In this document: piece by piece, positions 27,103 through 31,713 of the stretch
Layout: every line of letters starts with the position of its first letter
How positions within the stretch are numbered: the stretch's first letter is position 1
Assembly: GCA_963849325.1 (NCBI GenBank)
Contig: CAWKHF010000007.1
Coordinates: 256,001-320,000 of the forward strand
DNA length: 64,000 nt
From: an uncultured Planctomycetota bacterium
Lineage (GTDB): Bacteria > Planctomycetota > Planctomycetia > Gemmatales > Gemmataceae
Direction of reading: 5' to 3'
Notes under the pieces: generated by a model
Database searches by the model: none
The model's input: only the letters and a program-made list of their open reading frames with translations
What the model was told of the DNA's origin: nothing
Made by a program: the position numbers and the translations under genes

Positions 27103-27600
27103 ATGACGGCGGCAGCAGCGGCCCTTGACTTAAGCGTGTTGTACGAGCGGGACGAGACAGCGTGGTTGGAGGCCATGTCGTCCCTGGCGGCCAGCGGGCG
27201 GTACGCCGAGATAGATTACCGGCACCTGAGCGAGTATCTGGCAGACATGGCCAAGCGCGATCGGCGAGAAGTGTTCAGTCGGCTGGTTGTACTCCTGTCC
27301 CATCTGCTGAAATGGGAACATCAACCGGAACGCCGATCCGGTTCGTGGCGGGGCACGATTCGAGAGCAAAGGCGTGAGTTGCGGCAACTGCTGGAGAGTG
27401 GCACCCTGCGTAACCATGCGGAGGCGGTTCGGGCAGACGCTTACGCAGAGGCAAGGCGCCAGGCGGCTGACGAAGCGGAGCTGAGCCTGGACGTGTTTCC
27501 TTCCGAGGACAGGCGGGGCTTGGATGAATTGTTGGCGGAGCCAGACGTTCGAATCCGGCGCTGCAGATGTAACGTTCAATGTCAAGTCCCGTCCCCGTGA
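27103..27600 (+). CDS. DUF29-family protein; C-terminus reads through the attC half-site into the IS end
   Basis: LYERDETAW...HLSEYLADM...LLSHLLKWEHQPERRSGSWRGTIREQR. Confidence 0.88.
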   Translation: MTAAAAALDLSVLYERDETAWLEAMSSLAASGRYAEIDYRHLSEYLADMAKRDRREVFSRLVVLLSHLLKWEHQPERRSGSWRGTIREQRRELRQLLESGTLRNHAEAVRADAYAEARRQAADEAELSLDVFPSEDRRGLDELLAEPDVRIRRCRCNVQCQVPSP

Positions 27601-29693
27601 TGACGGCCGGTAAGAACGGTTTCCTCTTTCCTGTCTGCGCAATGCGGACGGCTCCGTCCCAAGGGCGTATTCTCTCCACCGACACGGTCAACCGTTCCTT
27701 AACCGTTCCTCTTCTCTGTTGCCGGGCGTGCCGAAGGCTCCAACCCAAACGTCCGCACCAGGTCCAAGGCCGCTTCCCGCAGCGACAAGCCATGCAACGC
27801 CGCCCACAGGTCGATCACGTCCCCCTTCTGACCGCACGTCTTGTCGAAGCACTGGAAGACGTTGGCCTCCAGGTTGACGCTGAAGGTCCGGCCCCGGCCA
27901 TCGCCGCGATGCAGCGGACAGGCACCGCGACGCTGCGGACCATTGCCACGCAAGCGCGTCAACAGACCGAGTTGATCGAGCACCTGCACCAGCGACAGTT
28001 GCGCCTTGACCTGCGCAAAATCCACAAAGGAACTCTCGCCACGGGCGGCGGTCTCGGCTACGCTGTCGGCACAGGCCGCAGTGACCACTTTCTCAGCCGG
28101 CATAGCTTCCGGCTTGTGGCCCGCGGCCTGGCTCGTTGCTGACATACCATTGTCATCGGATGCAGCATTTACTGACGTGGCATTGTCATTCTCCTTGATG
28201 TGGGCCGGCGTCTGCCACGGATAGTGATCGCGGTCAAAAGGCCGGCCCGTTTTCCCAATGGCGAACACCAGATGCAACAGTTTACGCATGGCGTGGCCGA
28301 CGGCGACCGCCTTGTGCTGGGGATGCTTGGCCACGACACGGGTGTACAACGCTCGCACCGCCGGATTGAAGCGGATGGCGCTCAAGGCTGCCATCCACAG
28401 ATAGCGACGCACCAGGTCATTGCCGCGCCGACTCATGACAAAACGCCTGGGCGAACGCGGCTGGCCGTCGCGGTCCACGCCGCTGGAAGCCTCGATGGGC
28501 AAGACACCAAAATAGGCCACCAGCTTACCCGGCGGGGCGAAGCGATCGATGTCGGCGATGAAAGCTGTCAGCACCGCCGCCGTGACGGCGCCGATGCCCG
28601 GGATGGTGTCGAGGTGGTTGGTCTGGGGCAGGGCGTGATAGGCACTAACCAGCAGGGATTCCAGGCGTTTTTGCCGCGCGCCCCTATCGCGTAGTTGGCG
28701 GACCTGGTCGCGGACCAGCTCCTCGACGGCCGCGTCGTTCAGCGAGGCGATGGAGGTCTGTGCTTGTTGCAACAGCGGCGTTGCCAGGTCATCGGGTAGA
28801 TAGAGGATGGCAGCCAGTGTGGTGGGTCTGGCCTGGGCCAGGCGGGCGGCGGTCGGGTAGCGGTGGACCCGTTCGAGGACCCAGCCGGCGGCGATATCCT
28901 TGGTGAGCAGGGCCAGCTCGGGGAAGGTCAAGGCCAGGAGATGATGGAACGGGTTAAGGAGCCGTGTGCGTTGGCGGACGACAGCCTGGAGTCGGCCGGC
29001 GATCTGGCGGAGGATGCGGAGTTCCAGGGACAAGGGTTTGTCCCTTCGGGGTCGCTCGGTCACGGCATAGCGTGCGGCGACGCGGGCTTCGACGGGATCG
29101 GACTTGTGACTGCCGAAGAAGGCGGCGCGATAGTTTTTGTTGCGTTGCGGATCGCCGCAGGAGAGGGTGAGGGCCAGCGGCTGGGCGGCGTTGGCGGGGT
29201 CGGCTGGCGGCGTGGCCTGTTGGTGGAGAAAGTGCAGCAAGTTGTCGGCATAGGGTCCGGCCACGTCCAGACGCACGGCGAAGTCCACGGCGCCGTATCG
29301 TTGGACAAGGGCTTGGAGGCGTTGGCGGAAGAGAGCGTGGCCGGCGGCAGACTCGGGGAAGGACAGCTCGTCAGCAGCGGATTGGAGATCGTCGGTGAGA
29401 AAGACGGCGTAATGTCCGTAGCGGGAGGTGTCGATGCCGACGCCGATGCGTTGCGGTGATTGCGGCGCGGGAGCTGGCTGCTTTTCTAAGCAATGCAAGA
29501 GCAATTTTGGTGAGGATGCCGGCACGCTGGGTGCGCACGGTCATTGCTCCTTTGCGACCCCAATGGTCGCAATTGTTCCGTGCCACCGTCTGACCCACCG
29601 TGCCTACCGACTACCCTGCTCTCGGCGACTCGCCAACTACTCCTCCTCGGCACTTCAACGCTCGGCTCTCTCCAAGCTTTTACCTGGAATGTA
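27567..29693 (-). mobile_element. IS110-family element A, bounded by ATGTA at both ends
   Basis: ATGTA at 27567-27571 and 29689-29693; outward-facing TTGACA near the downstream end; ~130-150-nt non-coding ends. Confidence 0.8.
27699..29525 (-). CDS. IS110 recombinase fused to a C-terminal CHC2 (primase-type) zinc finger; true start may be the ATG at 29544 with a frameshift
   Basis: GIDTS, RLDVAG, KSDPVEA, LDTIPGIG, LVAYFG..PIEASSG, AMRKL; C-terminal CPLH-x19-C-x4-C..GDVIDL. Confidence 0.9.
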   Translation of the reverse strand: MPASSPKLLLHCLEKQPAPAPQSPQRIGVGIDTSRYGHYAVFLTDDLQSAADELSFPESAAGHALFRQRLQALVQRYGAVDFAVRLDVAGPYADNLLHFLHQQATPPADPANAAQPLALTLSCGDPQRNKNYRAAFFGSHKSDPVEARVAARYAVTERPRRDKPLSLELRILRQIAGRLQAVVRQRTRLLNPFHHLLALTFPELALLTKDIAAGWVLERVHRYPTAARLAQARPTTLAAILYLPDDLATPLLQQAQTSIASLNDAAVEELVRDQVRQLRDRGARQKRLESLLVSAYHALPQTNHLDTIPGIGAVTAAVLTAFIADIDRFAPPGKLVAYFGVLPIEASSGVDRDGQPRSPRRFVMSRRGNDLVRRYLWMAALSAIRFNPAVRALYTRVVAKHPQHKAVAVGHAMRKLLHLVFAIGKTGRPFDRDHYPWQTPAHIKENDNATSVNAASDDNGMSATSQAAGHKPEAMPAEKVVTAACADSVAETAARGESSFVDFAQVKAQLSLVQVLDQLGLLTRLRGNGPQRRGACPLHRGDGRGRTFSVNLEANVFQCFDKTCGQKGDVIDLWAALHGLSLREAALDLVRTFGLEPSARPATEKRNG

Positions 29694-29707
29694 TCGCCCC
29701 ACGGCGA

Positions 29708-31246
29708 CCATCGAATGGGCTCCCTCGAAGATCACGCCCAACGCCTCGGTCATGGCCCCTCCATACGGAGCTGGATGCTCCTTCCAGGCACGAGCAGCCG
29801 ATGCGGAAGGTGGCCCACCGAGGAGAGGTTGCCGACTTCGTCGTCGCTTCCTCCTTTCGTTGCTCAACTCCTCTTGCCCACGCCCGCGTCCAGCGACACC
29901 GTGCTGTCGGCCGTCAGACTTCGATATAACCGCGCCCGGTCGAAGGGCTCGCCGCGGCCGCCGACCCGGTACAACGCCAACGCCAACTTACGCATCACAC
30001 CGGCCAACGCCGGCTTGGCAGCGCCACGCCGTTGCGCCTTTTGCCGCACATACCAACTGCGCACCGGCTCCTGCCGCACCCAACGCAACGCCGCCAGGTA
30101 CAGCCAACGCCGTACCACGCTGGGACCCCGCTTGCTGATCTTGAGCTGGCCCTGCCAGCGACCACTGCTGCGTTCCTTCAGGTTCAGCCCCATCGCCTTG
30201 CGATAGGCCGACCCACAGTGGTAGTCCTGGGGATTGCCCAACGCCACCCACAGCACACACGCCGTCGCCGGGCCGACCACTGCGGCCATCGCCTGGATGA
30301 CCGGCTGCGTTGCCGCCAGTTGCCGCCGCCGCCGGGCCTGCCGATGCTGCTGCAGCCCCTCTTGCACCTGTTGGGCATAACGACGCAGGCGTTCCTCGTC
30401 CCAGCGTCCGACCGGCACGCCCGCCGTCTGCCGGGCGCTGGCTGCCAGCGCCTCGGCCTTGTCCCGGCGCAACAGACCCTTGCCCCAACGGTACAGCCGG
30501 TCTACCGCCTGGATGTCCTCCGCCAAGCCGCCTGGCCCGCCGTAGCGTAGCAGGCAGCGTCGCAGCACCCCGGAGGTCAAGGGCAACAACGCGGTCGCCT
30601 CGGGCCAATGCCGGCTCCAGAGCGCTTCCAGCCGGCCGTACCACAACTGCGTCTGCCGCCTTGGGCCTTCGAGCCACTCGACTTGGTAAGCCAGTTCCTG
30701 TTCGGCCTCGCTGGGCAGGACCAGCGGCCAGGGCCAACTGCGTCCCTGAGCGGCCAATTCGGCCACGATGGCGGCGTCCTTGCCGTCGTGCTGGGACGGG
30801 ACGCCGTCGAAGATCTCGGCGTAATCGGCGGCGGCCTTGGGGCTGATCCGATGCACCATCAAGCCGGCATGCTGGAGAGCGTGGCGAAGGGCATCGCCGT
30901 AGGTGCCGGTCGGCTCCAGGGCGACGACGAGCTGGCGGCCCTGGCCGAGGCGCTGCCGGGCCTGGGTGAGGCAGGGGAGGTCGGCGGGGTTGCGGCAGCG
31001 CCAGGGGCGCTCGAAGTCGTGGTTGTCCCAGCGGAGCACGCAGAGGATGGAGTCCTTGCCGACATCGAGGCCGGCGTGGACGAGCGTCTCGTGCCGCGGG
31101 TGCAGCAGGCGATCCAGGTAGATCGGATTGACAGCGACGGCGCGGTATGCTGTGCTCTTCATGGGGATGACCTTTTGTACGTGGACTGGTGATCGTAGCT
31201 GACACCACAATAAACCACTTTCGAGGCATCCCCATTCTTATAGCCC
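29708..31246 (-). mobile_element. IS110-family element B of IS1111 type
   Basis: Sub-terminal IRs GAATGGGCTCCCTCGAAG (29713-29730) / CTTTCGAGGCATCCCCATTC (31218-31237); CCA at both junctions; ~150-nt downstream non-coding region. Confidence 0.82.
29864..31162 (-). CDS. IS110/IS1111 recombinase
   Basis: GLDVGK, ALEPTG, HDGKDA (DEDD), ERSSG, ISKRG, VMRKL. Confidence 0.92.
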   Translation of the reverse strand: MKSTAYRAVAVNPIYLDRLLHPRHETLVHAGLDVGKDSILCVLRWDNHDFERPWRCRNPADLPCLTQARQRLGQGRQLVVALEPTGTYGDALRHALQHAGLMVHRISPKAAADYAEIFDGVPSQHDGKDAAIVAELAAQGRSWPWPLVLPSEAEQELAYQVEWLEGPRRQTQLWYGRLEALWSRHWPEATALLPLTSGVLRRCLLRYGGPGGLAEDIQAVDRLYRWGKGLLRRDKAEALAASARQTAGVPVGRWDEERLRRYAQQVQEGLQQHRQARRRRQLAATQPVIQAMAAVVGPATACVLWVALGNPQDYHCGSAYRKAMGLNLKERSSGRWQGQLKISKRGPSVVRRWLYLAALRWVRQEPVRSWYVRQKAQRRGAAKPALAGVMRKLALALYRVGGRGEPFDRARLYRSLTADSTVSLDAGVGKRS

Positions 31247-31260
31247 ACTGAGCTTGGTTG

Positions 31261-31460
31261 GTCGGCGAGTTCCTCGGCGAGGTTGACGGCTCCGGTGCAG
31301 GCTTCCCGTGCGGCGCCGTGGACGGTGCCGAGTCGTTGGATGGCTTGGTTGATGGCGTCGGCGGAGTCGGGCACGGCGCGGTTGCAGAGGACTTTGCCGG
31401 TGTTGTCCAGGACGCAGAGTTGGACGGCGTGTTGGGAGTAGTCCAGTCCGACGACTCGCC
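31261..31460 (-). pseudogene. N-terminal fragment of a third IS110 recombinase
   Basis: VVGLDYSQHAVQLCVLDNTG...EACTGAVNLAEEL. Confidence 0.7.
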
Positions 31461-31464
31461 TTCC

Positions 31465-31713
31465 CAACGGCTCACGCCGGTGGATGACCGCGAACAACGC
31501 CCGCAACGACTCACGCAAGCGTTCCCCAGAAGCACGCGCCGGAGTGTCCGGCAAGGTCGTCAGGAACTTCACGTCCCCGATCAGGGGGGCCAGGCAGAAC
31601 GGCATCACGACGCCGCACGCACGCAGGTAACGCCGGTAGGCCGAGAAGTAGTCGCAACCCAGCACGCCGTGGAACTCCTTCCCCAACCCCTCCAGCAGCA
31701 CGTCGGCCCGATC
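31465..31713 (-). pseudogene. Internal fragment of an IS66-family transposase
   Basis: VLLEGLGKEFHGVLGCDYFSAY...FCLAPLIGDVKFL. Confidence 0.7.

Follow-up and report, generated by a model that had tools for sequence, protein, structure and literature searches.

We analysed a 64,000-nucleotide (nt) stretch of DNA, called the window here, from an uncultured Planctomycetota bacterium of the family Gemmataceae (assembly GCA_963849325.1, contig CAWKHF010000007.1, positions 256,001 to 320,000), and in it a reverse-strand gene that joins an IS110-family recombinase to a zinc-binding domain of the type found in the primase DnaG. In our reading, to which we assign a probability of about 0.6, this gene belongs to a Planctomycetota-wide clade of bridge-RNA-guided IS110-group recombinases carrying a tethered DnaG-type zinc ribbon, and the copy in the window is a relic of such an element. 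An earlier note, made from the letters of the window, had claimed the fusion as well as an unusual D-D-D-E tetrad of acidic residues, and both claims held.

A recombinase clade with a C-terminal zinc ribbon

The window gene is a single uninterrupted open reading frame (ORF) of 608 codons when counted from a GTG, and the database model of the same protein (P0003), 599 amino acids (aa) long, begins at a TTG further in (Table 1). The earlier note had placed the frame at 27699-29544; its stop end stands, whereas its outer end lies 19 nt past the first possible start (29525). All three Pfam profiles that the note had named as a check matched: DEDD_Tnp_IS110 (PF01548) at residues 29-202 (E = 4.7e-12; 46.4 bits against a cut-off of 29), Transposase_20 (PF02371) at residues 304-394 (E = 1.4e-19) and Zn_ribbon_DnaG (PF01807) at residues 504-596 (E = 4.3e-9; 36.5 bits against a gathering score of 24.9). 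The recombinase and the CHC2 zinc finger are therefore encoded in one frame, as had been proposed, and the C-terminal pattern of cysteines and histidine is that of the DnaG zinc-binding domain.

Structure prediction, likewise suggested in the note, gives the same picture. The AlphaFold model, built on a 33-sequence alignment, has a mean predicted local distance difference test (pLDDT) score of 80.1 and predicts both the core (residues 25-435) and the zinc domain (~500-600) with confidence, whereas the linker of ~60 aa that joins them (438-498) has pLDDT below 50. In a Foldseek search the top matches are the bridge recombinases IS621 and ISCro4 (E ~5e-15, template-modelling (TM) score to target 0.72-0.75), and the primase zinc domain 1d0q stands at rank 50 (E = 4e-4, TM to target 0.70). 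Matching by sequence to solved structures returns the same three proteins (IS621, E = 3e-14; ISCro4, E = 1.7e-12; 1d0q, E = 8e-5). In the alignment to IS621, Ser348-Gly349 pairs with the Ser-Gly of that enzyme, so that the serine motif is intact as the note had stated, and the TDtvDA of IS621 lies opposite SDpvEA in the window protein. The acidic residues are D32, D87, D143 and E146; the window protein thus departs from the canonical IS110 tetrad D-E-D-D, with all four slots still acidic.

The solved enzymes IS621 and ISCro4 (PDB 8wt6-8wt9, 9t56) share with the clade the core fold of RuvC-like domain, coiled coil and Tnp domain, the Ser-Gly nucleophile, and a guide RNA in the longer left end with a target loop and a donor loop. 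Their identity to the window protein is ~20-22%. At 328 and 341 aa, respectively, and aligned to their C-termini, they lack its C-terminal extension of ~170 aa, made up of the disordered linker and the DnaG-type ribbon, which agrees with the note's claim that the well-studied IS110 recombinases have no such domain. They also carry E in the second and D in the fourth acidic slot, whereas the clade has D in the second and mostly E in the fourth. Relatives of the window protein further differ from them by helix-hairpin-helix-like matches between the two core domains, and the window protein does not reach the cut-off of the NCBIfam IS110 equivalog. With the DnaG zinc domain (PF01807, 1d0q) the window ribbon has the CHC2 ligands and the surrounding motifs in common; in DnaG primase, however, the zinc domain is N-terminal, whereas in the clade the ribbon forms the C-terminus of the recombinase, and the second cysteine pair is C-x4-C in most members and C-x2-C in some. 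The window protein reaches 33 bits with the NCBIfam model for DnaG (TIGR01391), whose cut-off is 283.6, and aligns to it over the zinc region alone; no Pfam match to a Toprim, an RNA-polymerase/primase catalytic or a helicase-binding domain was found in the window protein. Judged by its domains, the protein would not be a DNA primase, for which the catalytic domain is missing.

The earlier note had held that the fusion would be refuted if homologues never carried it. Of the 120 database homologues that match best (71-100% identity), 117 combine PF01807, PF01548 and PF02371, and the source databases label them just 'transposase'. A search of cluster representatives returned 9005 matches at E<=1e-3 and 253 at E<=1e-30; among the 33 longest of 150 listed representatives, which were the ones scanned, 15 have the zinc ribbon (E<=0.01) and share 36-66% identity with the window protein. 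The four zinc ligands, D32, D87, D143 and S348 are invariant in these 15 and the query; at the fourth acidic slot, 13 of the 16 sequences have E and 3 have D. Likewise, in 33 of 33 clade sequences the CHC2 ligands, D32, D87, D143 and S348 are invariant and the second acidic slot is D, whereas the fourth is occupied by E in 29 sequences, by D in three and by A in one. We therefore regard the D-D-D-E tetrad as a marker of the clade, in which both substitutions are conservative.

In a quick tree of 29 core sequences, all 16 zinc-ribbon rows fall within one clade of 24 (Shimodaira-Hasegawa-like approximate likelihood-ratio test, 100%). The tree omits two visibly frameshifted (P0150, P0155) and four partial sequences (P0168, P0197, P0233, P0242), 12 of its 26 inner branches are unresolved and its rooting is provisional. 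The next branches outward (P0199, P0210) have D in slot 2 and no zinc ribbon, and the branches beyond (P0209, P0213) have E in slot 2; on the provisionally rooted tree, the change from E to D in slot 2 would precede the gain of the ribbon. The linker motif AAGHK..(R/K)-VVTA is conserved across the clade, ribbon-less members included, and sits in an otherwise disordered, fast-evolving linker. Several relatives end in a common GVITPDAP-like tail, which the window protein lacks.

The fusion marks one clade that is spread through the Planctomycetota. At E<=1e-30, a match is present in 20 of 200 other genomes of the window's taxonomic family and in 16 of 90 genera, the window's own genome included. 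In a set with one genome per species, 151 stretches were found, almost all in records whose titles name a Planctomycetota lineage (mostly Gemmataceae, Isosphaeraceae, Pirellulales, Thermoguttaceae, Planctomycetaceae and Tepidisphaerales), and a few on short contigs binned outside Planctomycetota. The ESM Atlas also holds stand-alone CHC2 zinc-finger proteins of ~104-110 aa, in clusters of 53-129 members for which Planctomycetota is the sole recorded phylum; these may be free versions or fragments of the IS110-fused ribbon domain.

Purifying selection on the zinc ribbon is as strong as on the catalytic domains. In pairwise comparisons of the window ORF with 16 of 80 metagenome loci, the ratio of nonsynonymous to synonymous divergence (dN/dS) is 0.085-0.273 for the zinc domain, 0.159-0.394 for the RuvC domain and 0.071-0.213 for the Tnp domain, and 0.445-1.105 for the linker. 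Since synonymous divergence in the zinc region is high (dS 0.42-1.28), this constraint acts at the level of the protein.

Full-length elements and their predicted guide RNA

Full-length relatives of the window copy are insertion sequences of ~2.2-2.4 kb. Directly 5' of their conserved ATG lies a left end of ~255 nt that is common to relatives from other genomes and to 80 soil-metagenome contigs, and their right end measures ~133 nt. Using the left end of a second copy in the window's genome (on contig C4, see below) as the nhmmer query, we obtained 88 matches among 93 loci, located directly upstream of the ORF wherever coordinates were inspected. From 57 aligned left ends, RNAalifold derives a predicted fold that comprises a hairpin on the 5' side, one closing stem and a pair of long stem-loops containing internal loops. 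In this 57-sequence alignment, 19 of the 47 pairs show compensatory changes and 95.6% of cells are paired, versus 35-51% in slid controls; none of 500 shuffles reaches the observed covariation. An Rfam scan in E-value mode of four loci with full left ends returned no bridge-RNA family and one small-RNA match at chance level.

The two loops match the DNA that they would have to recognise. The left junction of the elements has the sequence ..CGG-TCTGC-TTGTATG.., the right junction ..GTTACA-TCTGC-AGCG... In the first loop, GGTCTGC on the 5' strand and the reverse complement of ATCTGCAGC on the 3' strand together match the target; in the second loop, GTTACATCT and the reverse complement of GCTTGT together match the donor junction. 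In the G072 subfamily, the DNA differs at three guide-matched places and the RNA is changed to match (ATCTGCCAC against ATCTGCAGC, GTTGCATCT against GTTACATCT, and ACAAGG/CCTTGT against ACAAGC/GCTTGT). The second base of the right flank, which lies outside the element, covaries with the guide as well: counted by hand, and with rows L092 and L126 dropped as misaligned, the guide has A in five of six A-flanks versus 2 of 33 others. At the left junction, the three positions that follow the core vary together with the first loop's 5' strand (G in 5/6 versus 0/49), as 'handshake' pairing with the element's own end would give, a concept reportedly introduced in the IS621 structure paper. Insertion-site flanks share ..CGG-TC-TGCAGCGCCTGGTTCGGC.., and the context common to the insertion sites is longer and partly palindromic.

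Because the predicted bridge RNA lies in the left end and its loops match target and donor junction, the clade elements have the IS110-group layout as defined in Durrant 2024 (PMC11208160), which we follow for the distinction between IS110 and IS1111 groups and for RNA guidance. The IS1111 group, with its seekRNAs and including members that target attC, belongs to the same IS110 family and likewise chooses its sites by RNA. Its elements, however, have a short left end and carry the RNA in a long right end, whereas the clade has the RNA in the ~255-nt left end and a right end of ~133 nt; the IS1111-like layout seen in the window is that of the neighbouring element B, not of the zinc-ribbon element. 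The earlier note had suggested attC as a possible target of the extra domain; no link of the clade to attC turned up, in analyses that included no search aimed at attC or integrons.

Activity is apparent elsewhere in the clade. Genome G072 holds 6 copies, 98.7-99.9% identical over 2375-2480 bp, and genome G100 holds 6 copies, 98.2-99.7% identical; the zinc-ribbon proteins encoded in both genomes are intact. The clade thus has near-identical copies with defined ends, a sign of mobility, which does not extend to the window copy because its left end is lost.

We propose that the recombinases of this clade would act as follows. The protein combines a RuvC-like domain (D-D-D-E/D), a serine-nucleophile Tnp domain and a ribbon on a flexible tether of ~60 aa, and the predicted RNA of the ~255-nt left end folds into two stem-loops with an internal loop each. 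The 5' strand of either loop is in sense with the left half-site and the core, and its 3' strand is antisense to the core and the right half-site. One loop matches the target, ..CGG-TC-TGCAGC.., and the other the donor junction, composed of the right end ..GTTACA-TC- and the left end TGCTTGT... Given that the loops match target and donor junction, recombination would proceed as in IS621, with a circular donor junction and the target bridged by the RNA. In this scheme the recombination chemistry and the RNA guidance follow from homology and from the RNA-DNA matches, and we infer that the zinc ribbon is required for transposition.

Some further features of these elements are recorded here. A possible promoter across the circle junction, in which TTGACA in the right end would pair with a -10-like hexamer where the left end begins, has awkward spacings, 17 to 21 nt by eye. 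An abundant genomic repeat was considered as the target and rejected, the 10-mer occurring 9 times in the genome, below the expectation from base composition. The reconstructed empty target has one good match in the genome (C12:1173456; L207 ~1057-1090; 4 mismatches in 32); this candidate empty site lies between called ORFs, and an Rfam scan of it gave no match. At locus L023 (G111 C6), a right-end terminus is found 8 nt plus core upstream of another element's left end, an arrangement that represents either a tandem pair or an insertion beside a resident copy; in both G111 copies the ORF is split near residue 356.

The window copy and its neighbourhood

The copy in the window is probably a stranded, non-autonomous relic, since left end, bridge RNA and native start have been lost where the right end of element B abuts. 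Relatives from other genomes cease matching at 29470-29480, and ~270-285 nt are missing, comprising the left end, the bridge RNA, the native ATG and the first 5 codons. No ribosome-binding-like motif is visible ahead of the in-frame GTG or TTG, and a nearby AAGGAG-ATG opens a different frame. The segment 29476-29725 was considered as the zinc-ribbon element's own left end and rejected, because it aligns with the right end of element B relatives; relatives of the zinc-ribbon element stop at 29470-29480 and carry a different conserved left end. Assays of excision and insertion, as proposed in the earlier note, would need a full-length relative, because the window copy lacks bridge RNA, native start and left end.

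The genome holds two zinc-ribbon copies only. The second, at C4:314979-317183, is 89% identical to the window copy and has both ends and the bridge RNA intact, which is the one copy of the clade's left-end RNA in this genome. Its ORF is broken, with 18 indels and 205 mismatches over 1936 columns; the indels are small, mostly 1-nt insertions outside homopolymer runs. A solo right-end fragment of 62 nt (C6:48314-48375, 92% identical) is followed by GGTTCGGC, a flank motif seen at many insertion sites.

Several points weigh against the reading of clade and window copy given above. Eight of the 24 clade rows have no Pfam zinc-ribbon match and are scattered inside the clade, which would mean that the domain can be lost within it, and the ribbon-less members that were inspected may be truncated products. 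The window protein scores 123.7 bits with the NCBIfam IS110 equivalog NF033542, under the cut-off of 140. The bridge RNA of the left end is a prediction from sequence, the agreement between guide and flank is imperfect, and the core is ambiguous, TCTGC being shared in the majority type and TC alone in variants. The role that we propose for the ribbon below would derive from purifying selection and from the behaviour of DnaG zinc domains. Finally, the junction at 29474/29475 comes from the assembly alone, and none of the public contigs aligned here crosses it or covers the linker; a 183-nt contig from run X1 matches 29342-29473 without mismatch and then continues into the canonical 5' end, so that a full-length sibling exists in the X1 sample, and the assembly could conceivably be mis-joined at this position.

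A third, IS110-type recombinase is represented by an N-terminal fragment (31159-31701, reverse strand), and a 195-bp stretch there (31260-31454) recurs with 86.7% identity at four further sites of the genome, which makes this part of the window a nest of IS110-family elements. Element B (29476-31290), whose right-end terminus abuts the truncated zinc-ribbon copy, is laid out like an IS1111 element, its left end being short and its right end long. As the earlier note had said, its recombinase carries the typical E in the second acidic slot, and Pfam gives it no zinc ribbon. It is single in this genome; in G143 and in G110, relatives with 65% identity account for 8 matches apiece. A solo 250-bp copy of its right-end segment ends at the same base as the segment in the window and is followed by unrelated DNA. 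On the other side, the zinc-ribbon element appears to have inserted into the end of a host ORF, since the 3' end of that ORF reads into the element's right end. We tentatively take this ORF to be DUF29-like; its paralogues on C1 and C5 are 73-76% identical to it in nucleotide sequence.

Table 1. Features of the zinc-ribbon element and adjoining genes, in window coordinates
Feature	Position	Strand	Basis or remarks
Host ORF, 3' end running into the element right end	27103..27600	+	ORF calling
Element right end: conserved hairpin, TTGACA motif, terminus ..GTTACA, then shared core TC (27566-27567)	27566..27698	-	Boundary ~3 nt
Zinc-ribbon IS110 recombinase ORF	27699..29525	-	Start GTG 29525 (608 codons) or TTG 29498 (599); stop 27699-27701
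DnaG-type CHC2 zinc ribbon, residues 504-596	27738..28016	-	Pfam, Foldseek, alignment
Zinc ligands	C536 27918-27920; H539 27909-27911; C559 27849-27851; C564 27834-27836	-	
Disordered linker, residues 438-498	28032..28214	-	pLDDT below 50; dN/dS 0.45-1.1
Linker motif AAGHK..K-VVTA, residues ~467-483	28077-28127	-	G469, V481, T482 conserved
Tnp domain and core end, residues 304-435	28221..28616	-	Pfam, AlphaFold, Foldseek
Nucleophile S348	28482-28484	-	
RuvC-like DEDD-type domain, residues 29-202	28920..29441	-	Pfam, alignment
Acidic residues	D32 29430-29432; D87 29265-29267; D143 29097-29099; E146 29088-29090	-	
Probable truncation point	29474..29475		Similarity to all relatives ends at 29474, codon 18
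Terminal part of the long right end of element B	29476..29725	-	99.6% identical to solo copy C5:64069-64318
Recombinase ORF of element B (IS110 family); second acidic slot E, zinc ribbon absent	29864..31210	-	P0002; Pfam, tree

Candidate roles of the zinc ribbon and what they would mean

Given that the ribbon is of DnaG type, sits on a flexible tether and is strongly conserved, we tentatively suggest that, on its tether in the synaptic complex, it binds single-stranded nucleic acid, either DNA strands displaced by the guides or unpaired segments of the bridge RNA, a role to which we would give somewhat less than even odds. The DnaG-type zinc domain is, by family, a reader of single-stranded template. 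A narrower version, in which the ribbon would grip the strand displaced by the bridge RNA as a single-stranded DNA reader, possibly read the short core and help to melt or proof-read GC-rich, partly palindromic targets, is unlikely in our estimate; primases read a template trinucleotide. It is rather improbable that the ribbon instead is a protein-protein or regulatory module which docks on the core of another subunit for tetramer control, or which auto-inhibits the enzyme until RNA is bound. In its favour, the disordered linker carries a conserved short motif, kept even in ribbon-less clade members; however, no result points to an interface, and DnaG-type ribbons are known as DNA-binding modules. 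Coupling of transposition to replication, through binding of lagging-strand template or docking on the host primase-helicase, had been raised by the earlier note and strikes us as quite improbable. The DnaG type of the domain would fit, the long flexible tether would permit the reach, and the zinc domains of primases, which read single-stranded template, work in trans with the adjacent primase subunit, but the protein has no Toprim, primase catalytic or helicase-binding domain by Pfam, no result ties insertions to replication, and helicase binding in DnaG is done by its C-terminal domain rather than the zinc domain.

Two other explanations concern the window gene itself. The ORF is open over 1.8 kb with catalytic residues and zinc ligands intact, and the C4 copy, dead in its ORF, keeps both ends and the only left-end RNA of the genome; the window protein might therefore be translated from a chance start codon and use the RNA and ends of C4 in trans, each defective copy complementing the other. 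We see little chance of this, as the native start is gone, neither the GTG nor the TTG is preceded by a ribosome-binding-like motif, the AAGGAG-ATG opens another frame, and the 89% identity of just two genomic copies suggests no recent activity. That the fusion is an artefact of assembly or gene calling, or a functionless primase remnant captured once, is excluded: the same single-frame architecture recurs in 117 of 120 close homologues, in 15 divergent representatives and in the six G072 copies, and the zinc domain keeps a dN/dS of 0.085-0.273 at a dS of 0.42-1.28. A clade of RNA-guided recombinases with a selected, tethered ribbon, of which the window holds a relic, thus remains the reading we prefer.

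We found no description of an IS110-zinc ribbon fusion in the literature searched, although Supplementary Table 5 of PMC11208160, an ISfinder-wide catalogue of bridge RNAs, may list members. The architecture is visible in domain databases, where the three Pfam matches are recorded, but undescribed. The significance of the locus is tempered since the window holds a dead copy and the D-D-D-E tetrad is a conservative change.

Bridge (IS110) recombinases are under development as programmable tools for genome rearrangement, and the solved examples consist of the core alone. A clade that is active in several genomes and keeps its ribbon under selection implies a recombination step that needs the ribbon. 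The ligand of this domain could reveal a hitherto unrecognised requirement of the reaction, be it strand displacement, reading of the core or handling of the RNA, and the zinc ribbon could serve as a portable accessory module. If the ribbon does act as a single-stranded DNA reader, these enzymes would be the first bridge recombinases with a built-in accessory module for DNA recognition, offering a handle for engineering their specificity or efficiency.

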